Part shown: positions 15,441 through 42,034 of the stretch, piece after piece
Position numbering within the stretch: the stretch's first letter is position 1
Layout of the letters: each line of letters begins with the position of its first letter
Assembly (NCBI GenBank): GCA_902628925.1
Contig: CACOPA010000003.1
Coordinates: forward strand, 98,485 to 162,484
DNA length: 64,000 nucleotides
From: an uncultured SAR86 cluster bacterium
Lineage (GTDB): Bacteria > Pseudomonadota > Gammaproteobacteria > Magnimaribacterales > D2472
Direction of reading: 5' to 3'
Made by a program: the position numbers and the translations under genes
The notes under the pieces: generated by a model
The model's input: the letters and a program-made list of their open reading frames with translations, nothing else
Databases searched by the model: none
What the model was told of the DNA's origin: nothing

Positions 15441-17972
15441 ATGCGTAAATTATTATCTATATTAATGTTGTTGCCAGTCGGCATCATTTCTTCATCTTTG
15501 CATGCTCAAAATGAATTGGTTCTTGAAGAGGTGGTCGTTACAGCAACTAAAAAAGAAGAAAATGTTCAAACAATTGCTGAAACTGTTAATGCAGTAAGCG
15601 GCAGCGATATCGATGATTATCAAATTCGTGAACTAAGCGAATTAGCACAGCTGGTATCTGGAGTTGAGTTCACTCAAATTGATCCCAGAAGAGCAAGCAT
15701 CACAATTCGAGGTCAAAAACTTGACCCTGACACCGGTACTGATCAACCTATCCAGGCATATATTGATGAAATGCCTGTAAGACCTCAGGTTGCTTTCTAT
15801 CAAATGTTTGATACTGAAAGAGTTGAGATTTTAAAAGGTGCTCAAGGAACGGTTCAGGGTGTTGTTAGCACTGGTGGGGCACTTCAAATTTACACAAGAG
15901 ATGCTGAGATTGGAAGTGATGCTAGAAACGGCTATATCAAGTCTTCTTTTGCGGATAATTCTACTCAGATCTTAGAATTTGCATCTGATATAGGCATTAG
16001 TGACACAATGGCAATGAGATTTGCTGCTGTAACTAATGACAATGCTGGAAATGAAGTTAAAAATATTAGAAATAACCAAAGAGAAGACCATGCTTACGAT
16101 GCTTTTAGACTCTCACTAAATTGGGAGCCAAGTGATAATCTCTCAGTAAGACTTAAATTTCAAAATATGGAGTCAACAAGCATAGCTCCAAGAGCTGTTG
16201 CAGGCTCAAGTGGCCCTATTACTTTTGATACATTTGCAGCAGTTGCAGGTGTTTCAAATCCATTTTTTCCTGCCACTACTTATCCGGATTATGCTTCACT
16301 TGTAAATGGCTATGTAGCTACAGTTGCTCAACTTGGAGGAGCGGCTGCAGCACAGCAACTAGCTTTCCTTCACAGACCAACCTATGGTGATATTGCTGGT
16401 GGTTCACTTGACTTTGAAGACCGAACAGCCCTTCATTTCCAAAGAGCTTATCAGAATAATTCTGGAGAAACCCTAAACCTCATGATTGATTATGATATGG
16501 GATCACATCTTTTATCATTAAGAATGTCCGATTATGAAAATGATACTCTAGGGTTAATTGATAGGGATATTGCTGGTGCGTATCCATATGGGTATCCTCA
16601 AGAAGTAAGAACAAATGCTGGTATAGATACTTTTGAAGCAAGGATTTCTAATCAGGATAATTCTAAACTTGAGTATACTTTAGGTGTTTTCAGTAGAGAT
16701 TCAGAAACATTTACCCATGCTGATCTAGATAGATCCTTTGATATAACATCTGTAGCTCCTCATTTATATAAAGGAGCAGTACCATTTAATTACAAGACAC
16801 CTTTCAATGCATGTCAGGCTGCTGTTAATGATGGCAGTACATTTGCAAATCAAAGTGTGATTTTGGCTTGTTCAAACTATACAGTTAACTCTAAAACCGA
16901 AGCAGTTTTTGCTAACTTTAAGTACAACATTAGCGATCAAACTTTTCTTCAGTTTGGTATGAGAGAGCAAGAAATATCTGCCTATGCATCAAACCAATTC
17001 TTCCTTCCATTATCTTTGTTGGTAGGACAAGCATCAGGCGGGGGTGGCTCATTTGAGTTAATACCTGCTGCCTTACAGCAAGTTGACAATGAATCAACAA
17101 CTGGAAGCTTTAAAATCGGCCATTTTGTTGATGATGACGTAATGGTTTATTACTCATTACAACAAGGTTTCAGAGGCGCAGGACGTACTTTAGCTAACAC
17201 ACCAATTTCACCAGCGCTAGTTCCTTTTGCCGAAGAAGAAACTGACATGACTGAAGTTGGTATGAAAGGTACATTCATGGACGGCAGATTAAGACTTAAT
17301 TTTGCTTATTTTGATTATTCCTTCGAAAACTTCCAAAGAAAATGGGATGATGTAACCGCAAGAACATATGGTCCTACAGGCCCAGGAGCAACAGCTCAGG
17401 TACAGGGTGGAATCATTAATAATAATGATGCATCTCTTACAGGTATGGATCTTGAGTACAAATATATTGTTAATGAAAATCTTGTATTAGGAGGAAGCAT
17501 TACATCTTCTGAAAGTGAGTTTGATGCAGGATCAGTTGGTTATATCAATGATCCTTCCTATACAGGAATGACTGCTGCTACAAGAGATGTTAGTGGTGAT
17601 CCAATTAATGATGCTGTTGAAACCTCATGGACTTTTTATCTTGATCACACAGTGCCTTCTTATGCAGGCGGTGAAAGATACACAAGATACAACATCAACT
17701 ACAGAGGTGAAAGAGATAATGGCGTCAATCCAGATCTTAAAATCGGCGAGCTTTATCTTGCTAACCTTTACTTTGGTTGGAGATCAGGAGACGGACAATG
17801 GGATGCAAATGTCTTTGTAAAAAATGTCTTGGATGATGTAGATCTTGCATTTATGCCTAATTACTTCTCAGACTATGCACTTCCTGGCGGAAATGGATTG
17901 CCTTCAAAATTCTATGAAGCAGTAACTAACCGTGGAAGACAAATTGGATTCCAATTAACTTACAACTTCTAA
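15441..17972 (+). CDS. TonB-dependent receptor
   Basis: Signal peptide, TonB-box/plug start ELVLEEVVVTATKKEE, a long beta-barrel region, and a C-terminal ...QLTYNF with terminal Phe. GGGGGA RBS. Confidence 0.9.
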   Translation: MRKLLSILMLLPVGIISSSLHAQNELVLEEVVVTATKKEENVQTIAETVNAVSGSDIDDYQIRELSELAQLVSGVEFTQIDPRRASITIRGQKLDPDTGTDQPIQAYIDEMPVRPQVAFYQMFDTERVEILKGAQGTVQGVVSTGGALQIYTRDAEIGSDARNGYIKSSFADNSTQILEFASDIGISDTMAMRFAAVTNDNAGNEVKNIRNNQREDHAYDAFRLSLNWEPSDNLSVRLKFQNMESTSIAPRAVAGSSGPITFDTFAAVAGVSNPFFPATTYPDYASLVNGYVATVAQLGGAAAAQQLAFLHRPTYGDIAGGSLDFEDRTALHFQRAYQNNSGETLNLMIDYDMGSHLLSLRMSDYENDTLGLIDRDIAGAYPYGYPQEVRTNAGIDTFEARISNQDNSKLEYTLGVFSRDSETFTHADLDRSFDITSVAPHLYKGAVPFNYKTPFNACQAAVNDGSTFANQSVILACSNYTVNSKTEAVFANFKYNISDQTFLQFGMREQEISAYASNQFFLPLSLLVGQASGGGGSFELIPAALQQVDNESTTGSFKIGHFVDDDVMVYYSLQQGFRGAGRTLANTPISPALVPFAEEETDMTEVGMKGTFMDGRLRLNFAYFDYSFENFQRKWDDVTARTYGPTGPGATAQVQGGIINNNDASLTGMDLEYKYIVNENLVLGGSITSSESEFDAGSVGYINDPSYTGMTAATRDVSGDPINDAVETSWTFYLDHTVPSYAGGERYTRYNINYRGERDNGVNPDLKIGELYLANLYFGWRSGDGQWDANVFVKNVLDDVDLAFMPNYFSDYALPGGNGLPSKFYEAVTNRGRQIGFQLTYNF

Positions 17973-17990
17973 GTTAGTTCAATCATTTAT

Positions 17991-18016
17991 AAAAGGCAGC
18001 CTAGGCTGCCTTTTTT
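17991..18016 (+). terminator. Rho-independent terminator after the TonB-dependent receptor
   Basis: AAAAGGCAGCC-TA-GGCTGCCTTTTTT: a GC-rich palindromic stem followed by a T-run. Confidence 0.75.
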
Positions 18017-18062
18017 ATTAATGAGCTAATGATATAAATTTATTTCAGTAATTAGATAAGTA

Positions 18063-34457: not shown

Positions 34458-34542
34458 GGGGATGTGGTGGAACTGGTAGACACGCTTGGCTTAGAACCAA
34501 GTGCCGAAAGGCGTGGGGGTTCGACTCCCTCCATCCCTACCA
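34458..34542 (+). tRNA. tRNA-Leu (anticodon UAG)
   Basis: Folds by hand as a cloverleaf. Acceptor GGGGATG/CATCCCT. D-arm GTG-GAACTGGTAGA-CAC. Anticodon stem CTTGG/CCAAG with loop CTTAGAA. Long variable arm. T-arm GGGGG-TTCGACT-CCCTC. ACCA end. 85 nt. Confidence 0.95.
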
Positions 34543-34562
34543 ATATCCTATAATTTGCATAT

Positions 34563-35060
34563 ATGGAATTAGACTTTAGAGCTTTACAAGTAATCGCTGA
34601 AGTTGCCCTAGGCATAGTAGGATTCTCAGCAATTCTTATAGCACTAAGTAGATCAGAGGATGGTTTCACGGAACCAGATAATTTTAGAATACAACTCCTA
34701 ACATTTTCGGCATTTGGTGCGATGTTTTGTGCGTTATTACCATTTGCAATTTTTAATGCTGATAATCCATCCATGAGCTGGAGTATTATTAGCACTGTTT
34801 TGTGTATATATTCAGTGATTGGATTACTAATCTTCCCTAGACGAGTTATAGGGTTAAGAAAAAAAGGCTACCAAGACCTTTTTCCTATAGGAATTGTTGC
34901 AATACAACAGGGAATCCTTGCAATAAATTTTATATTATCTGGAATGATGGTTGTCGATGTGCTTTCGCAAAAAAATAACATTTACCTGTTTTGCCTAATT
35001 TTATTCTTAGTTCAGAGCACCATTGCCTTCATAAGGACTATGTTTTTTAGAGTTAAATAA
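34563..35060 (+). CDS. Hypothetical integral membrane protein
   Basis: 165 aa with about 5 TM helices. No family assigned. Confidence 0.6.
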   Translation: MELDFRALQVIAEVALGIVGFSAILIALSRSEDGFTEPDNFRIQLLTFSAFGAMFCALLPFAIFNADNPSMSWSIISTVLCIYSVIGLLIFPRRVIGLRKKGYQDLFPIGIVAIQQGILAINFILSGMMVVDVLSQKNNIYLFCLILFLVQSTIAFIRTMFFRVK

Positions 35061-35091
35061 AATTTCATTGATTTCTAAATCAACATAACTA

Positions 35092-35119
35092 TTTACATAT
35101 TTACAATTTTGCTTATTAT
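35092..35119 (+). promoter_or_regulatory. Candidate sigma70 promoter of the arg leader/operon
   Basis: TTTACA (35092-35097), a 16-nt spacer, then TATTAT (35114-35119). The predicted start falls around 35126-35127, at the ATG of the putative leader ORF. Confidence 0.3.
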
Positions 35120-35126
35120 TGAGGAA

Positions 35127-35225
35127 ATGAATTGCTTTAATCAAATTAATACACGGAGACAGCTAATATAGCTGGGCTATTTTTTTTGTTAAAGAACCCA
35201 GCTGACGCTGGGTTTTTTGTTTTTT
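35127..35225 (+). promoter_or_regulatory. Putative arginine-operon leader: 14-codon ORF with tandem Arg codons plus alternative hairpins (attenuator)
   Basis: The ORF ATG..TAG (35127-35171) encodes MNCFNQINTRRQLI. Segment 1 is CAGCTA (35160-65), segment 2 TAGCTGGG (35169-76), segment 3 CCCAGCT (35197-203), and segment 4 GCTGGG (35207-12) followed by a T-tract. Pairings 1:2, 2:3 and 3:4 are all possible. Confidence 0.4.
35195..35225 (+). terminator. Intrinsic terminator hairpin immediately upstream of argF'
   Basis: AACCCAGC-TGAC-GCTGGGTT followed by TTTTGTTTTTT. Only 13 nt lie between the T-tract and the argF' ATG. Confidence 0.75.
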
Positions 35226-35238
35226 AGGGTACAAAAAT

Positions 35239-36240
35239 ATGGATGATATCAGACACTTTATTTCGACTAATGACTGGAGTAAGAATGACCTGCAGGCAAT
35301 TATTGATGGAGCTGTAAAACTTAAGGCTTCACCTTTTCAAGCATCCCTTCAGAATAAATCAGTTGCAATGTTATTTTTCAATCCATCACTCAGAACCAAG
35401 ACAAGTTTTGAAGTTGGTATTAGCGAGCTATCAGGCACTGCTATTATTTTACAACCTGGTAAGGATGCTTGGCCTATTGAGTTTGAGGATGGAGTCATAA
35501 TGGATCAAGAACCTGAGGAGCATGTCAAAGAAGTTGCGCAAGTTCTTTCTGAATACTGTGATTGCATTGCCATCAGAGCTTTTCCAAAGTTTATAGACTG
35601 GAATATTGACAGGACTGATCACGTAATTAAAAGTTTTGCAAAATATGCATCTGTTCCTGTAATTAATATGGAAACCATTGAGCATCCTTGTCAGGAATTA
35701 GCTCACTTAATGACTTTACAGGAAACGTTAGGATCTCTTGAGGGAAAAGATTATTTGCTCACCTGGACTTATCATCCCAAACCATTAAATACTGCTGTAG
35801 CAAATTCTAGCCTTCTAATTGCAAGCAAGTTTGGAATGAATGTGAAGCTTCTTTGTCCTTCTGAGGATTATTTGTTGGATAGACGATATCTTGATTATGC
35901 TGAAGAGGCCTGCAGCAAAAATAATAAAAGCTTTGAAATTACTCATGATATTAATGCTGGCTATGATGGAGCCAATATCGTTTATGCAAAAAGCTGGGGG
36001 TCTCTAAATTTTTATGGAAATCCAAAAGATGAATTTGAGGTTAGAAAAAACTTTAAACACTTTATCGTAGATGAAGAAAAAATGGAGTTAACCAATAATG
36101 CTCTTTTTAGTCACTGCCTTCCTTTAAGAAGAAATGTAAAGGCAACAGATGAAGTCATGGATTCTCCTAATTGCGTAGCCATCCAAGAGGCTGCGAATAG
36201 AAAACATGTGCAAAAGTCACTTTTAACAAAAATCTTATGA
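35239..36240 (+). CDS. argF': N-acetylornithine (or N-succinylornithine) carbamoyltransferase, ArgF'-type
   Basis: Transcarbamylase motifs SLRTKTSFE (S-x-R-T), HPCQELA and HCLPLRRN. The sequence otherwise diverges from classical OTC. The gene context matches the Xanthomonas acetylcitrulline pathway. Confidence 0.8.
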   Translation: MDDIRHFISTNDWSKNDLQAIIDGAVKLKASPFQASLQNKSVAMLFFNPSLRTKTSFEVGISELSGTAIILQPGKDAWPIEFEDGVIMDQEPEEHVKEVAQVLSEYCDCIAIRAFPKFIDWNIDRTDHVIKSFAKYASVPVINMETIEHPCQELAHLMTLQETLGSLEGKDYLLTWTYHPKPLNTAVANSSLLIASKFGMNVKLLCPSEDYLLDRRYLDYAEEACSKNNKSFEITHDINAGYDGANIVYAKSWGSLNFYGNPKDEFEVRKNFKHFIVDEEKMELTNNALFSHCLPLRRNVKATDEVMDSPNCVAIQEAANRKHVQKSLLTKIL

Positions 36241-36248
36241 GGAAATCT

Positions 36249-37436
36249 ATGAAAAAAATAGTTTTAGCATTTTCGGGAGGCTTAGATACGAGTTTCTGTA
36301 TCCCTTACCTTATTGAGCAAGGTTATGAAGTGCATACCTTATTTGTCAATACCGGCGGTATTTCAATCAGTGAGGAAAAACATCTATCTAACAGAGCAAT
36401 TCAACTTGGTGCCAAAAAGCACAAGAATGTAAATGTTGAAACTAAGCTTTGGGATCAAGTTTTGGTTCCGTTAATCTTTTCGGGTGCACTTTACCAAAAT
36501 AGATATCCTGTCCTATGTTCGGACAGATATTTGATAGTAAGTGAGTCCATCAAATTATGTAAAAAGCTTAATACTAAATATATTGCTCATGGGTGCACTG
36601 GTATGGGAAATGATCAGGTAAGGTTTGATACATCCATTAATGCCTTAGGTTCATTCAACATCATTACTCCAATCAGAGATATTCAAAATATTACTGATAG
36701 TGTCAGGGACTATGAAATCAATTATCTGAAGCAAAGAGGGATTAGCGTCTCAAGCCTACATAAGAAATACAGCATCAATGAAAATCTAATGGGAGCAACT
36801 ATTTCTGGATCAGAGATTGATGTCTGGAAGGCTCCAAAAGCAGAGAGTTATGTCTTATGTAACTTACCTGAAGATTATCCTAAAAGAACAAAAAAGATTT
36901 CAATTAAATTTAATAAAGGAAAGCCTGTTGCCATTAACGGTACAAAAGTAAAAGGACCTGAGTTGCTACGCCACCTAAATAAAATAGGGGGTAAATACGG
37001 CATTGGAAGGAGTATTTTTGCCAGTGATACCATCATAGGATTAAAGGGCAGATTTGTCTTTGAAGCGCCAGGAATTTCAATTTTAATGACTGCTCACAGA
37101 GCTCTAGAGGAAAGTGTTCTTACGGATAAACAGAATCACTTTAAGTCAATGGTTGGTCAAGAATGGGTAAACCTTGTCTATCGTGGTTTCTTTTTTGATC
37201 CGCAGCGAGAAGATCTTGTAGCATATCTAAACTCATCGCAAACAAAAGTCACCGGAGATGTAACTATTCAACTTGAGCCAGGTAAAGCCGAAGCAATTGC
37301 AGTTGATTCAAAAAATGTACTTATTAGTGCAGAAGGATCTTATGCTCAGTCAGCTAAATGGTCAGATGATGAATCCAAGGGATTCATTAAACTTTTAGGT
37401 CAAAGTACTTCTACTTGGGCAAAACTTCATAAATAA
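36249..37436 (+). CDS. argG: Argininosuccinate synthase
   Basis: MKKIVLAFSGGLDTS (ATP pyrophosphatase P-loop). GAGGA lies 5 nt upstream of ATG 36249. The ORF also opens at ATG 36237. Confidence 0.95.
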   Translation: MKKIVLAFSGGLDTSFCIPYLIEQGYEVHTLFVNTGGISISEEKHLSNRAIQLGAKKHKNVNVETKLWDQVLVPLIFSGALYQNRYPVLCSDRYLIVSESIKLCKKLNTKYIAHGCTGMGNDQVRFDTSINALGSFNIITPIRDIQNITDSVRDYEINYLKQRGISVSSLHKKYSINENLMGATISGSEIDVWKAPKAESYVLCNLPEDYPKRTKKISIKFNKGKPVAINGTKVKGPELLRHLNKIGGKYGIGRSIFASDTIIGLKGRFVFEAPGISILMTAHRALEESVLTDKQNHFKSMVGQEWVNLVYRGFFFDPQREDLVAYLNSSQTKVTGDVTIQLEPGKAEAIAVDSKNVLISAEGSYAQSAKWSDDESKGFIKLLGQSTSTWAKLHK

Positions 37437-37439
37437 GTC

Positions 37440-38504
37440 ATGGAAGATCTATTTAATTCAGCTATCAAGCATCTTCAACAATTGGTTTCATTTGATACCT
37501 CAAATCCTCCAAGGGCAATTTCAGAATCCGGATTATTAGATTATTTGGAATCCATTGCTGGTCACAATTTATCCATCACTGATCATGGTAATGGTTCTTA
37601 TAATTGCTTAATACAGCAAGGCAATCCTAAGCATTTAATTAATGTTCATTTAGATACCGTTCCAGCAGGAGATGGTTGGGAAACAGATCCTTTTAAATTA
37701 CACACAGAAAATGACGTTATTTATGGACTCGGAGCATGTGATATCAAAGGAGCTGCAGCAGCACTTTTGTCATTGATTGAATCCTATGATTCTGAGTATG
37801 CGATTTTATTTAACACCGATGAGGAAGCAGGCAATAGCACCTGCATCAAGAAGTTTTTAGAAGCAGATCATTCTTACGAAGGCATTATAGTCGCAGAGCC
37901 AACTAACAATCTCGCGGTTACATGCCACAGAGGAATTTTTACCGGTACAAAAAAATTTAAGGGTAAAGCTGGACATAGTTCAGAGAAAAGAGGCCTTCAA
38001 GACAGTGCTATCCATAAGCTGATTCATTGGTCAGAAAAAGCATTAAAAGTTGCTGAAGATCATACAGAAACATCTTATGAAAACCTTCATGGCTTAGCTT
38101 TTAATCTTGGTCACATCAACGGCGGTATTAAACCCAATATCATTGCTGAATCTGCAGAAGTGAGACTCGGCTTAAGACCATTGCCAAATCAGGACATCAG
38201 TGAGTTAGTGGCTGAGTTAGGTTTAAGTGATTCCAATGAGGAGGAGTTTATTCAAGGATTTTCAGGTCCCAGTCTGCCAGCACAAGGATCAAATATTGAT
38301 CTAAAGGCTTTCGCAAACAAACTAAATTTATCATTATCATCCCCTGTAAATTTTTGGACCGAAGCATCTTTGTTTAATGAAGCCGGCTATCGTGCGATCG
38401 TTATAGGACCAGGAAATATTGAAAATGCACATCAAGCAAATGAATTTATCCATTTGAGTCAGATCAAGGAATCAATTGAAATATATAAGGGGCTTTTGAA
38501 ATGA
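37440..38504 (+). CDS. argE: M20 family deacylase, acetylornithine/acetylcitrulline deacetylase-like
   Basis: M20 motifs HLDTVP, GACDIKG, TDEEAG and AEPT. It lies within the arg operon. Confidence 0.8.
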   Translation: MEDLFNSAIKHLQQLVSFDTSNPPRAISESGLLDYLESIAGHNLSITDHGNGSYNCLIQQGNPKHLINVHLDTVPAGDGWETDPFKLHTENDVIYGLGACDIKGAAAALLSLIESYDSEYAILFNTDEEAGNSTCIKKFLEADHSYEGIIVAEPTNNLAVTCHRGIFTGTKKFKGKAGHSSEKRGLQDSAIHKLIHWSEKALKVAEDHTETSYENLHGLAFNLGHINGGIKPNIIAESAEVRLGLRPLPNQDISELVAELGLSDSNEEEFIQGFSGPSLPAQGSNIDLKAFANKLNLSLSSPVNFWTEASLFNEAGYRAIVIGPGNIENAHQANEFIHLSQIKESIEIYKGLLK

Positions 38505-39814
38505 CACAAGCCTCAAATATCTTTATCAAAGATACTATCATTAAACTTTTGACTGCAATTGGATCAGAAAAAGAAATCAAAAAATATATAAATAAGTTCT
38601 CTTCAACAGAACAACAATTTGCTGTTATAAAAGTTGGCGGCGCGGTTGTTGAAGATGATCTTGATAATCTAATTTCTTCACTAGTTTTTTTAAATCAAGT
38701 TGGACTAAGACCAATTATTATTCATGGGGGAGGGCCAGGGCTTTCCAAGGAACTCGATGCAAAGAAAATTGACTTTTCATTTATTGATGGTCAAAGAGTT
38801 ACATCTGAAGCAGTCAGAGATGTAGCAATCAATGTCTTTAGTGAAATTAACTCTTTATTAGTAAGACGTTTAAACGAACAAGGAGCATTAGCAATTGGTT
38901 TTAAAGAGGAAATATTTAAATCTGAAAAAAAATCAGAGGAACTTGGTTATGTCGGAGACATTAAGAAAGTAAATATTAAGCCTATTAATGAAGCTATCAA
39001 GGATGGCTTTATTCCAGTGATTTCACCGTTAGGAATTACTGAAACTAATGAGGTGGTTAATATCAATGCAGATATTGCCACAATAAACCTCGTTGAGAAA
39101 ATTAAGCCCTATAAAGTTGTATTTTTATCTCAAGTTGGAGGAATCTATGACAATAATGAATCCTTAATACAATCGATTAACCTTGATCTTGAGTATGAAG
39201 AAATGATGAATGCTGATTGGCTGCATTCAGGAATGCAATTAAAACTAAAACAGATTAAGGAGTTATTGGATTTATTGCCTCGATCATCATCAGTATCGAT
39301 TACAAAACCTATTGACCTGCCAAAAGAATTATTTACTGACTCTGGATCAGGGACGCTGATTAAGCGTGGGCATGGCATAGATATTTTTGAGTCCAAAGAT
39401 CAGGACATTCAGAAAAAATTTTTTAGCATCATAGAAAGCTCATTTAACGGTATTTTAAATAAATCTTTTTTTAGTGATGGCGATTACAAAATTTTTATGA
39501 CGACCTGCGAACGAGCAGCTATTGCTGTTTCTATGGAATACAAAGTTCCTTACATGGATAAATTTGGTGTTATTGCTGAAGCTAAAGGCGAGGGAATTGG
39601 CTCCGCAATTTTTCATGAAATGAAAAAAGAATTTCCCGAGATTTTTTGGCGCTCTAAATCAAATAATCCAATCAATAAATTTTACCTTTCCATGGCAGAT
39701 GGATATCAAAAAACAGGAGAGTGGGATATTTTCTGGATGGGAATTAATGACTACAGCAAATTAAATGAGTGCATTAATTTCGCAGTATCAAAACAGCAAA
39801 CCATCAGTTATTAA
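38501..39814 (+). CDS. argB: Bifunctional N-acetylglutamate synthase/kinase (vertebrate-like NAGS/K, ArgA/B)
   Basis: The N-terminal amino-acid-kinase domain has AVIKVGGAVV and IIIHGGGP. A ~150-aa C-terminal GNAT-like domain follows. At 437 aa it is too long for plain ArgB. Confidence 0.8.
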   Translation: MTQASNIFIKDTIIKLLTAIGSEKEIKKYINKFSSTEQQFAVIKVGGAVVEDDLDNLISSLVFLNQVGLRPIIIHGGGPGLSKELDAKKIDFSFIDGQRVTSEAVRDVAINVFSEINSLLVRRLNEQGALAIGFKEEIFKSEKKSEELGYVGDIKKVNIKPINEAIKDGFIPVISPLGITETNEVVNINADIATINLVEKIKPYKVVFLSQVGGIYDNNESLIQSINLDLEYEEMMNADWLHSGMQLKLKQIKELLDLLPRSSSVSITKPIDLPKELFTDSGSGTLIKRGHGIDIFESKDQDIQKKFFSIIESSFNGILNKSFFSDGDYKIFMTTCERAAIAVSMEYKVPYMDKFGVIAEAKGEGIGSAIFHEMKKEFPEIFWRSKSNNPINKFYLSMADGYQKTGEWDIFWMGINDYSKLNECINFAVSKQQTISY

Positions 39815-39815
39815 C

Positions 39816-40748
39816 ATGTCAAAGAAAATTAGCATCATTGGGGGAAGAGGATTTACTGGCCAAGAGCTTATCAAGCTTATTGAATCTCATCCTGAATTTG
39901 AACTTGCACAAGCATTTTCATCATCAGTGGCAGGTGAGGAAATCATGATCGATGAGCGTAAGCTTAAAAAAACTTATGCTTCACTTAATGAAAATACTGA
40001 GTTTGTTGAGGAAGATGCTTTTATTATGGCTCTTCCAAATAATAAAGCTGCCAAATGGGCTGACAAGATATCTAAACAAAACTCGCAAGCTATTATTCTT
40101 GATTTGAGTGCCGACCATCGTTTTGATAGTGAATGGCAATACAGTGTTCCTGAGTTAACTCATACTATTGGTGGAAATAAGATAAGCAATCCAGGTTGCT
40201 ACGCAACAGCAATGCAATTAATGCTTGCACCCATAAATAAAATGATTGATGGAGAGGTAAATTTTTTTGGGATTTCTGGATACAGCGGAGCGGGTGCAAC
40301 TCCAAATGATAGAAATGATCCTGATAAATTAAAAAATAACATTATTCCCTATTCGCTTAATAATCATATTCATGAAAAAGAGGTAAGTTTTCATATGCAA
40401 AGGGAAATAAACTTTATGCCTCATGTAGCAGATTTCTTTAGAGGAATCTTAATCACTGGAAATTTTTCTCTAAAGAGCCAATGTTCATCACAAGAGACTA
40501 GGAATATCTTTGATGATTTTTATGATGAGCATTCTTTTATAGTTATAAAAGAAGAATTCCCCTCAATATCAGAGGTTATCAACACACCCAATGCCATGAT
40601 AGGTGGATTTAATATTGATGAATCAAAAAAGCGATTAAGCTTTTGTTGTTCAATTGATAATCTACTAAAAGGAGCAGCATCACAAGCCATACAAAATTTA
40701 AATAATGTAATGAATTTTGACGAGAAGTTAGGACTACAGAAGAGATAG
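39816..40748 (+). CDS. argC: N-acetyl-gamma-glutamyl-phosphate reductase
   Basis: ISIIGGRGFTGQELI (NAD fold) and active-site NPGCYAT. ATG 39816 lies 1 nt after the argB stop and is preferred over the longer ORF start at 39765. Confidence 0.9.
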   Translation: MSKKISIIGGRGFTGQELIKLIESHPEFELAQAFSSSVAGEEIMIDERKLKKTYASLNENTEFVEEDAFIMALPNNKAAKWADKISKQNSQAIILDLSADHRFDSEWQYSVPELTHTIGGNKISNPGCYATAMQLMLAPINKMIDGEVNFFGISGYSGAGATPNDRNDPDKLKNNIIPYSLNNHIHEKEVSFHMQREINFMPHVADFFRGILITGNFSLKSQCSSQETRNIFDDFYDEHSFIVIKEEFPSISEVINTPNAMIGGFNIDESKKRLSFCCSIDNLLKGAASQAIQNLNNVMNFDEKLGLQKR

Positions 40749-40753
40749 AAACT

Positions 40754-42034
40754 ATGAAAATTTGGAATTCTAAGAATCAAAAAATAAATCAAAAAGTAGA
40801 CACCTTTTTAAGTGGTGAAGACATAAATCTTGATAATGAGATATTTATATTTGATGTAGATGCATCCATTGCGCACACTGAGGAATTGCTTGCAATAAAT
40901 CTACTTACAGGAAATGAAGCTTCTTTGTTAAAAAGAGAGCTTAAGAAAATTAAAAAAGATTTTTTATCTGGCAAGCTTAGTCTTAATAAAAAATTTGAAG
41001 ACTGCCACTCGGCTATTGAATATCTATTAATCAAAGAACTTGGAGATATTGGCAAGAAGATTCATACCGGCAGAAGTAGAAATGATCAGGTACTGGTTGC
41101 CCTTAGACTTTATCAACAACACTATTTAAAAATTATCAGGGATTTAGTGCTAAAGCTCGCTAAAGAACTTTTAAGTAAGTCAAAGCAAAATGAATATTTA
41201 CCAATGCCTGGTTATACCCATCTGCAAAGAGCAATGCCATCAACATGGGGGTTATGGTTTTCTTCTTATGTGGAAGCATTTTTAGATGATGTTGAGTTAT
41301 TAGATGCAATTTCAGATTGGACTAATATCAATCCCCTAGGAACGGCTGCAGGCTATGGAGTTAATTTACCTATCAAAAGAAAGCTTTCAACCAAGAAGCT
41401 GGGCTTTAGAAGATCTCAAGTAAATGCTTTATATGTTCAAAATAGCAGAGGCAAAATGGATTTAGAAATTTTAGGTGCTTTGAAGCAACCTTTTTTAGAT
41501 TTAAGAAAATTATCATGGGATTTGAGCTTATTTACTTCAACGGAATTTAATTTAATTGAGATTGGTAAGGAATTTACAACCGGATCTTCTATTATGCCTA
41601 ATAAGTCAAACCCCGATACCGTAGAGATAATGAGAGCCAATTATGCAAAACTTGCAGGTTATTATGCTGAAATTGAGAACTTAATCTCACTCCCTAGCGG
41701 CTATCACAGGGATTTGCAGATATCTAAAGGAGCAATCATAAATGCATTTAATATATGCGAATCTTCATTTTCTCTGGCACCTGCATTAATAAAATCATTA
41801 AAAATCAATAAAAAGAGAGCTTCAGAGATGATTGACTCTGATATGCAAATGACTGATCAGGCAAATGCGCTCGTTCAGCAAGGCATACCTTTTAGGGATG
41901 CTTATAGGTCTGTAAAGAATAATCCCAACAAGTATAAAAGTTTATCTTCAAAAACATATGCTTCATCGGTTGGGTCTGCAAATAACTTAAAGTTAAATCT
42001 TTTATCATCAAGATTAAAAAAATTAGCAAAATAA
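40754..42034 (+). CDS. argH: Argininosuccinate lyase
   Basis: Fumarate-lyase signature GSSIMPNKSNPD, plus TGRSRNDQV and GYTHLQRA. Confidence 0.9.
   Translation: MKIWNSKNQKINQKVDTFLSGEDINLDNEIFIFDVDASIAHTEELLAINLLTGNEASLLKRELKKIKKDFLSGKLSLNKKFEDCHSAIEYLLIKELGDIGKKIHTGRSRNDQVLVALRLYQQHYLKIIRDLVLKLAKELLSKSKQNEYLPMPGYTHLQRAMPSTWGLWFSSYVEAFLDDVELLDAISDWTNINPLGTAAGYGVNLPIKRKLSTKKLGFRRSQVNALYVQNSRGKMDLEILGALKQPFLDLRKLSWDLSLFTSTEFNLIEIGKEFTTGSSIMPNKSNPDTVEIMRANYAKLAGYYAEIENLISLPSGYHRDLQISKGAIINAFNICESSFSLAPALIKSLKINKKRASEMIDSDMQMTDQANALVQQGIPFRDAYRSVKNNPNKYKSLSSKTYASSVGSANNLKLNLLSSRLKKLAK

Follow-up and report, generated by a model that had tools for sequence, protein, structure and literature searches.

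The DNA examined here is a 64,000-nucleotide stretch (the window; GC content 37%) of contig CACOPA010000003.1 from an uncultured bacterium of the SAR86 cluster. On the + strand, at 35239–42034, it carries an operon for arginine biosynthesis with the gene order argF'-argG-argE-argB(NAGS/K type)-argC-argH, identified from open reading frames (ORFs) and family matches. The first gene, argF', encodes an N-acetylornithine carbamoyltransferase (NF003384, 530 bits; cut-off 288). Directly 5' of argF', on the same strand, lies a compact leader. A first-pass annotation had described it as a promoter, a short ORF with the Arg codons CGG AGA, three alternative RNA pairings and a terminator ending 13 nt before argF', and all of these features are present where it placed them. 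The leader is most probably a transcription attenuator of the classical ribosome-mediated (leader-peptide) kind, with charged tRNA-Arg as its signal and argF'-argG-argE-argB-argC-argH as its target.

The promoter consists of a −35 hexamer TTTACA (35092–35097) and a −10 hexamer TATTAT (35114–35119) with a 16 nt spacer, and is the top + strand match of the promoter scan (10/12). Seven nucleotides separate the −10 hexamer from the ATG (35127) of the leader ORF MNCFNQINTRRQLI, which comprises 14 codons (35127–35171) and ends with the stop codon TAG at 35169–35171. The sequence GAGG at 35121–35124 lies 2 nt 5' of this ATG. Codons 10 and 11 are the putative regulatory Arg codons CGG AGA (35154–35159). 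Segment 1, CAGCTA (35160–35165), forms the 5' arm of an anti-antiterminator or pause hairpin. Segment 2, TAGCTGGG (35169–35176), includes the stop codon and can pair with either segment 1 or segment 3. Segment 3, AACCCAGCT (35195–35203), can act as the 5' arm of the terminator or the 3' arm of the antiterminator, and segment 4, GCTGGGTT with its T-tract (35207–35225), supplies the 3' arm and U-run of the terminator.

The terminator, located by scanning and folding between the leader ORF and argF', is built from AACCCAGC (35195–35202), a TGAC loop and GCTGGGTT (35207–35214), followed by T6-G-T6 to 35225. Its stem has 8 bp, six of them G–C pairs, and its loop 4 nt. The leader ORF and the argF' ATG are 67 nt apart on the same strand. 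From the end of the T-tract, a 13 nt spacer containing AGGG, a possible Shine–Dalgarno sequence, leads to the argF' ATG at 35239 (35226–35241). In keeping with the expectation that the operon promoter lies upstream of the terminator, the gap is too small to hold a promoter, and the scan predicted none in it. A −10-like sequence in this gap, TAGGGT (35227–35232), was considered as a bypass promoter and rejected; it lacks a −35 element, shows no conservation among relatives and is absent from the scan output.

The leader exceeds chance expectation. Three terminator-like sites in 2 kb were found, against 1.0 ± 0.9 in shuffled sequences, two of the three being the leader hairpins, and folding of the leader gave a z-score of −2.54 relative to shuffles. 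An adjacent Arg pair is expected by chance in 1.5–4.9% of 13-codon ORFs. Arg makes up 3.65% of the codons of the window genes; the leader has two in tandem among 14 codons. One of the two, CGG, is the rarest Arg codon of the window genes (12 of 643 Arg codons, 1.9%; 0.68 per thousand codons) and the other, AGA, the commonest.

The pairings in the window were verified base by base. The 1:2 hairpin (CAGCTA 35160–35165 with TAGCTG 35169–35174) has 6 bp and −6.7 kcal/mol. The 2:3 antiterminator (AGCTGGG 35170–35176 with CCCAGCT 35197–35203) has 7 bp and −10.5 kcal/mol, or −13.3 kcal/mol if one more pair and a small internal hairpin are included; the 3:4 terminator has −13.3 kcal/mol, or −17.9 kcal/mol when extended. 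In the whole window leader, segment 2 is the best partner of the terminator 5' arm (−11.4 kcal/mol versus −2.2 kcal/mol for the next best). When a ribosome was modelled as a mask at the Arg codons with segment 4 absent, the minimum-energy fold was 2:3, and masks reaching 35165–35170 left it so (−11.4 to −13.3 kcal/mol). With the stop codon in the A site the mask covered segment 2 wholly, leaving the terminator without a competitor.

In the comparison of fold energies suggested by the first-pass annotation, 2:3 is the minimum under the Arg-codon mask, and the antiterminator as such is weaker than the terminator (−10.5 to −13.3 versus −13.3 to −17.9 kcal/mol). This difference was not counted against the model, because attenuators act kinetically and segment 4 is made last. 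A terminator more stable than the antiterminator is also present in the E. coli trp leader and is normal for attenuators.

Conservation was examined with an argF' protein scan, using one genome per species, which yielded 62 loci, nearly all from the SAR86 cluster and with identities from 98% to about 60%. The upstream region is included in 59 of them. It contains the window-type element in 34 loci, a different upstream ORF (uORF) with a hairpin in ten, panD followed by that same hairpin in six and no leader in four (L005, L006, L025, L026); the remaining five (L048, L051–L054) are distant and not of SAR86 type. The 34 loci with the element are other SAR86 species-level genomes (argF' identity 98% to about 65%), and the element is always directly 5' of argF' in the same orientation, 11–20 nt from its ATG. 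A covariance model built from 27 leaders matches the 34 loci (43–123 bits), including eight outside the training set, and its matches there end 11–12 nt 5' of the argF' ATG. Within the window its single real match is the leader (77 bits; next 25 bits). The second match (17906–18026) was rejected as an attenuator, since it consists of a bidirectional terminator together with the 3' end of an 843-aa gene. That terminator, AAAAGGCAGCC-TA-GGCTGCCTTTT at 17979–18010, lies between convergent genes (the 843-aa gene, ending at 17972, and a 199-aa gene on the − strand, from 18063).

Across the 35 SAR86 lineages (window included) the −35 hexamer is TTTACA and the spacer is constantly 16 nt; TTTAC is identical in all 29 relatives aligned for structure scoring. 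The −10 hexamer is TATACT in most relatives and TATTAT or TATCAT in the clade of the window. The leader ORF runs to 14 codons in 32 lineages and to 15 in three. Its stop codon is part of an invariant TAGC-G in segment 2, and the terminator core ACCCAGC...GCTGGGT with its T-run is likewise invariant (ACCCAGC in all 29 aligned relatives). The comparison with related genomes that had been called for in the first-pass annotation thus showed conservation on all four points, namely short ORF, Arg codons, alternative stems and promoter. The upstream neighbour varies by locus, being tRNA-Leu right next to the promoter, some other protein-coding gene or, for the window and L001, a 165-aa ORF, so the element belongs to argF' and not to the upstream gene.

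The peptide itself is not conserved in SAR86 beyond Arg-Arg, its eight N-terminal residues varying freely. All 35 lineages have an Arg codon at the same aligned position, and in 33/35 it is tandem or triple, spelled AGA CGG (26), CGG AGA (three, the clade of the window), AGG AGA (two) or CGA AGA CGG (two). The Arg pair of the window's clade is placed one codon later than in the main clade and in another nucleotide context; it is therefore Arg coding that is conserved, not a nucleotide string. Judged from the alignments, the Arg codons are selected as codons.

The RNA structures were scored on an alignment of 29 SAR86 relatives. RNAalifold on the full leader returned the terminator only, because the alternative structures compete; being blind to alternatives, it was replaced by explicit scoring of the named structures. 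The terminator helix is 99.6% paired and nearly invariant. The antiterminator is 88.5% paired, against 12–49% when its 3' partner is slid by 1–3 columns. The anti-antiterminator helices are 70–82% paired, the helix equivalent to 1:2 of the window reaching 82%. In the main clade the anti-antiterminator is an imperfect stem of three helices that encloses the Arg codons, with five pairs changed on both sides. The placement of segment 1 just after the Arg codons, as first annotated, holds for the hairpin of the window; in most relatives the stem is longer and imperfect and takes in the Arg codons.

More divergent loci gave most of the co-variation for the terminator and antiterminator. In two GC-rich gammaproteobacterial metagenome assemblies (62% argF' identity) the leader ORFs encode RRRRR and RRRR, spelled CGC CGA CGT CGT CGT and CGA CGT CGT CGT. 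Leader ORFs of 29–35 codons are present in a Lysobacterales metagenome genome and in seven genomes of named taxa, six of them from named species or strains and one a Dokdonella sp. assembly (Frateuria aurantia, Luteibacter aegosomaticola, Tahibacter amnicola, Dokdonella sp., Xanthomonas campestris, Lysobacter antibioticus and Pseudoxanthomonas sp.). All of these distant leaders share the SAR86 layout, with 3–5 Arg codons. In 13/13 lineages examined, no 12 nt stretch of the leader pairs better with the terminator 5' arm than the one at the stop codon (offset −13 to 0 nt; −10.5 to −16.6 kcal/mol), and segment 2 changes together with the terminator arm, CCCAGC occurring with GCTGGG and CCCGGC with GCCGGG. 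On this comparison the co-variation in 13 lineages is compensatory evidence for the antiterminator of a kind not obtainable from the invariant SAR86 stems.

The Xanthomonadales leader peptides hold A(A/S)GMTSRARRP, with RARR spelled CGT gcg CGC CGA. In the five leaders with codon listings the GMTSRARRP core shows five synonymous third-position differences and no replacements, which argues that the leader ORF is translated. These ORFs close with GCTGGGT or GCCGGGT and the stop, and the ACCCAGC or ACCCGGC of the terminator follows 31–45 nt on. The terminator stem core ACCCAGC/GCTGGGT is common to SAR86 and Xanthomonas, suggesting that the 14-codon SAR86 leader is a streamlined homologue of its Xanthomonadales counterpart. 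The upstream gene is a different one, belonging to the Rick_17kDa_Anti family in the four loci with a Pfam-identified neighbour. The Xanthomonadales leaders (L063–L069, L054) lie about 100–220 nt 5' of argF', and their core is kept at the amino-acid level, unlike SAR86; the one in Frateuria has already been called by the gene caller as an unnamed 34-aa gene. The nascent chain (RARRP) may itself contribute to stalling in these bacteria. Taken across both groups, the element is not confined to SAR86 and appears to be an old feature of argF'-type operons reaching Xanthomonas.

The following mechanism is proposed for the window. Transcription would begin from TTTACA-16-TATTAT at or within 1–2 nt of the leader ATG (35127), so that the 14-codon ORF would be translated as a leaderless message. 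When arginine is scarce, the ribosome would stall at CGG AGA (35154–35159) and cover segment 1; AGCTGGG of segment 2 would then pair with CCCAGCT of segment 3 before segment 4 is made, no terminator would form and RNA polymerase would enter argF'. When arginine is plentiful, the ribosome would reach the TAG within segment 2 and mask this segment, 3:4 would form and transcription would stop at the U-run (35215–35225). If the leader is not translated, for example in read-through from tRNA-Leu, 1:2 and 3:4 would both form and transcription would terminate. Since termination is the untranslated default, the device would also insulate the operon from read-through of the strongly transcribed tRNA-Leu. 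A T8 run at 35180–35187, 5 nt 3' of the 1:2 hairpin and called terminator-like by the scan, is a candidate pause or weak termination site. It is seen in the window, L001, L002 and L004 and is missing from L003 and the main clade; as it is not adjacent to the stem, it is more likely to be a pause site than an efficient terminator.

The leaderless start, also put forward in the first-pass annotation, gained support. Because the −10 hexamer ends 7 nt before the leader ATG, the start is predicted to lie at or next to this ATG, and the ATG is 6–9 nt after the −10 hexamer in every SAR86 lineage, in most of them with the Shine–Dalgarno sequence missing. In Xanthomonas 14% of mRNAs are leaderless (PMC3300014), which makes a leaderless leader ORF plausible in this lineage. 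The transcript data consist of assembled metatranscriptome contigs. They document expression of argF' in the sea, and single contigs among them join leader, terminator and argF'. For the L029-type strain, the contig with leader, terminator and argF' starts at 2886–2889 in three of four runs, the leader ATG being at 2888, and the depth upstream is lower or absent. These starts are suggestive of a transcription start at the leader ATG. The leader ORF is probably translated from a leaderless transcript.

Several observations weigh against this interpretation of the leader. Strain single-nucleotide polymorphisms at 2880–2885 could also break the L029 contigs at that point, and in other runs contigs span from tRNA-Leu straight through the leader. 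The largest modelled mask (ribosome on AGA, reaching 35172) cuts the antiterminator to −5.4 kcal/mol; since such a footprint would weaken 2:3, stalling with the rare CGG in the A site is favoured. A mismatch inside the antiterminator (pair 97:126) is present in 11/29 relatives, and most terminator and antiterminator pairs are invariant in SAR86, the co-variation coming mainly from the comparison between SAR86 and Xanthomonadales. The sensing codons number only two, and L002 and L004 retain one (CGG ggt). Finally, the element is missing from 20 other SAR86 loci and is therefore not indispensable.

Among the alternatives, the one that survives best is a genuine switch that is set by a trans-acting factor, either an RNA-binding protein or an ArgR-like repressor at the promoter, and not by translation of the ORF. 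Protein-mediated attenuation is common, as in TRAP- and PyrR-type systems, and the conserved nucleotides near AGACGGG and TAGCTGG could be a protein-binding site. A protein site is disfavoured by the retention of Arg while its spelling and context change (four spellings in SAR86 and CGN runs in the distant relatives), by the restriction of variation in the Xanthomonadales leader core to synonymous sites and by the conserved position of the ATG, frame and length of the leader. As regards a repressor, no tandem ARG boxes (WNTGAATWWWWATTCANW) overlapping the promoter were found. Matches with up to three mismatches occur at the chance level in the window (65 against 61 ± 7 expected), none of them over the promoter; the nearest (35052–35069) has three mismatches, is single and lies upstream of the −35 hexamer. 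We regard control by a trans-acting factor as improbable.

The stretch from promoter to terminator could also be an independent small gene beside argF', producing a trans-acting small RNA and/or a functional 14-residue peptide. With its strong promoter and its terminator, the stretch forms a self-contained unit of about 100 nt, and attenuated leader RNAs can act in trans, as reported for rnTrpL and peTrpL in Sinorhizobium (bioRxiv 10.1101/606483). The lack of peptide conservation beyond Arg-Arg in SAR86 and the constant position of the unit 11–20 nt 5' of argF' in one orientation both speak against such a gene, as does the ability of segment 2 to pair with the terminator arm in every lineage, a property for which a small RNA standing alone would have no need. 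An independent gene is thus quite improbable as the explanation, while the leader may have a secondary trans role beside attenuation.

Scarcely any weight attaches to a metabolite riboswitch (for arginine, a precursor or a derivative) or a nascent-peptide sensor of free arginine similar to the fungal arginine attenuator peptide. The leader is cis-regulatory and has an expression platform, nascent-peptide sensors of amino acids exist (TnaC, SpeFL) and the GMTSRARRP core hints at a contribution of the nascent chain in Xanthomonadales. Against this stand the absence of any Rfam family above threshold, the limited space (about 40 nt of variable sequence and two small helices, with no room for an aptamer), the unconserved SAR86 peptide and the fact that stalling at high arginine would turn a biosynthetic operon on at the wrong time.

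The last alternative, in which the hairpins are terminators of the upstream tRNA-Leu and 165-aa ORF, the short ORF is due to chance and the arg operon is transcribed from another promoter or by read-through, would fit the same-strand orientation of the upstream genes, their lack of another terminator before 35160, the metatranscriptome contigs that run from tRNA-Leu into the leader and the fact that a terminator placed here would end upstream transcripts too, but we consider it highly improbable and, by the comparative data, already largely refuted: the element and its own conserved promoter stay 11–20 nt from argF' in 34 loci with differing neighbours, conservation extends to the ATG, the length of 14 codons, the Arg codons and the position of the stop within segment 2, no promoter is predicted in the 13 nt between T-tract and argF', and the same layout occurs in Xanthomonadales next to another upstream gene (Rick_17kDa_Anti family, four loci).

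In its predicted structure the leader has the structural elements of leader-peptide attenuators, of which trpL, hisL, leuL, thrL, pheL and ilvL of enterobacteria are the classical examples. As in these, a promoter is followed by a short ORF with codons for the end product, by segments pairing as 1:2, 2:3 and 3:4 and by a terminator just before the first structural gene, and the stop codon lies where a terminating ribosome would be expected to mask segment 2. The number of codons (14) and of tandem sensing codons (two) is that of trpL. It differs from the enterobacterial attenuators in sensing arginine, in having no sequence or Rfam similarity to Trp_leader, His_leader, Leu_leader or Thr_leader, in its ATG 6–9 nt after the −10 hexamer without a Shine–Dalgarno sequence and in its hosts, SAR86 and Xanthomonadales.

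The known set of leader-peptide attenuators covers Trp, His, Leu, Thr, Phe, Ile/Val and Cys, and arginine biosynthesis is taken to be governed by ArgR-type repressors or, in Firmicutes, by T-boxes. The remark in the first-pass annotation that an Arg-codon attenuator would be unusual proved apt, as no leader-peptide attenuator of arginine biosynthesis was found in Rfam 15, Pfam, NCBIfam or the open-access full texts. Rfam 15 was searched at the gathering threshold over the window, with E ≤ 10 over 35050–35260 and in ten related loci; tRNAs alone were above threshold, and the sub-threshold matches were driven by the terminator. The T-box (RF00230) was not matched in 35050–35260 even at E ≤ 10. 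Six leader peptides matched no Pfam or NCBIfam family. The main text of a 2010 genome-wide survey of premature terminators (PMC2965389) contains neither arginine nor the arg gene names searched for, and the Xanthomonas arginine-operon and transcriptome papers examined do not mention the element. The Arg specificity would be new for leader-peptide attenuators, no description of it having been found in the open-access literature; the mechanism itself is textbook.

Other arginine-related leaders share parts of the design. In Firmicutes, Arg T-boxes control arginine genes at the RNA level through the charging of tRNA-Arg and a choice between terminator and antiterminator, and a 2005 comparative paper lists T-boxes, in other species, as the sole RNA-level control of arginine genes (PMC1262725). 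Unlike the present element, T-boxes bind uncharged tRNA directly and need no translation, and the leader here is far too short to be one. In the Salmonella speF leader, orf34 is reported to have consecutive Arg codons, and its translation speed, set by arginine, to alter mRNA conformation and downstream expression (PMC6386406). The speF system governs polyamine synthesis (ornithine decarboxylase), not arginine biosynthesis, from a long leader with multi-level control and lacks a compact 1:2/2:3/3:4 intrinsic-terminator switch.

Staphylococcus aureus rbfL is a small uORF that senses arginine limitation through ribosome pausing at rare Arg codons (AGA, AGG), just as the present element keeps the rarest one, CGG. 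It differs in acting on translation, the paused ribosome occluding the rbf ribosome-binding site and repressing under Arg limitation, in having no terminator and in its target, a biofilm regulator (PMC13009471). The uORFC-8-2 motif of cysS in Rhodobacterales is likewise a comparative candidate attenuator with two tandem cognate codons in the first stem and a 3' terminator, but senses cysteine, targets a tRNA synthetase, is alphaproteobacterial and is unrelated in sequence (PMC8632094). E. coli argL is, like the leader ORF, a small translated ORF on the 5' side of the gene for a carbamoyltransferase of the arginine pathway; it overlaps the argF 5' end in another frame, and the passage that describes it names no terminator or antiterminator (bioRxiv 10.1101/511675). 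There is no sign of relatedness between argL and the element. The argF gene of E. coli is under ArgR control.

Different arrangements were observed upstream of argF' in other SAR86 clades. In L007–L012, L022–L024 and L059 the terminator attenuator is replaced by another element about 35–160 nt 5' of argF'. It consists of a uORF of about 40 codons with its ATG 7–9 nt after a CATACT-like −10 hexamer, ending in RRRRSI*, RRLRSI*, RRSRSI* or KLRSL*. Some 5 nt past the stop a small hairpin without a consistent T-run begins, and the distance from the stop to the argF' ATG is 34–38 nt. This may be an Arg-sensing translational or hairpin-melting device. In L013–L018 panD lies directly 5' of argF' and ends ...IPTQR(L/I)RS(L/V)*, resembling the C-terminus of the about-40-codon uORF. 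The same hairpin comes next and shows co-variation (CACCA-GCAA-TGGTG, CCATCA-GAAA-TGATGG, TCACCA-GCGA-TGGTGA). The uORF may be derived from the 3' end of panD, or the reverse. In the four loci with no leader ORF, a terminator of the upstream gene (GGGAGC-loop-GCTCCC with a T-run) is followed by a CTATAAT-type −10 hexamer. By this distribution the attenuator appears to have been lost or replaced more than once in SAR86-related loci. One contig of the uORF group, L008 (CASIAN010000014.1), is labelled 'uncultured Rhodobacteraceae', but upstream of argF' its sequence is almost the same as in SAR86 L010; it is probably mis-binned or mislabelled.

Upstream of the leader in the window, on the same strand, are tRNA-Leu (34458–34542) and the 165-aa ORF (34563–35060), which matched no Pfam or NCBIfam family. 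Only the window and L001 have this ORF separating tRNA-Leu from the arg promoter; the tRNA gene abuts the promoter in L002, L004, L027, L029 and others. It looks like an insertion beside the tRNA gene. One metatranscriptome contig jumps from 34545 to 35222, leaving out the stretch with the 165-aa ORF. Within the operon there are 4 nt overlaps between argF' and argG (36237–36240) and between argE and argB (38501–38504), and argB shares 50 nt with the argC ORF as listed (39765–39814). The overlaps are consistent with tight translational coupling within one operon; the real argC start may lie further downstream than that of the listed ORF.

On balance we lean towards a wider reading, in which the SAR86 leader is the first recognised member of an old, widespread and undescribed family of Arg-codon attenuators of argF' operons, extending from SAR86 to Xanthomonadales (including Xanthomonas campestris) and replacing ArgR-type repression. 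Its leader ORF would be leaderless and would use the rarest Arg codon, CGG, as the sensor; the GMTSRARRP sequence may add to the stall in Xanthomonadales, and sister SAR86 clades would have swapped in a different Arg-rich device of uORF plus hairpin.

A conserved Arg-codon attenuator, if true, adds a new specificity to leader-peptide attenuation. Since cultured and genetically tractable bacteria (Xanthomonas, Lysobacter, Frateuria and Luteibacter) carry the same device, it is testable. The apparently leaderless leader peptide in a gammaproteobacterium bears on the coupling of transcription and translation without a 5' untranslated region. SAR86 is among the most abundant bacterial groups of the surface ocean, and the ratio of leader to argF' transcripts would serve as a marker of arginine limitation in ocean metatranscriptomes. 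For SAR86 itself, with its streamlined genome and few transcription factors, the attenuator would explain how an expensive, nitrogen-rich pathway is tuned.

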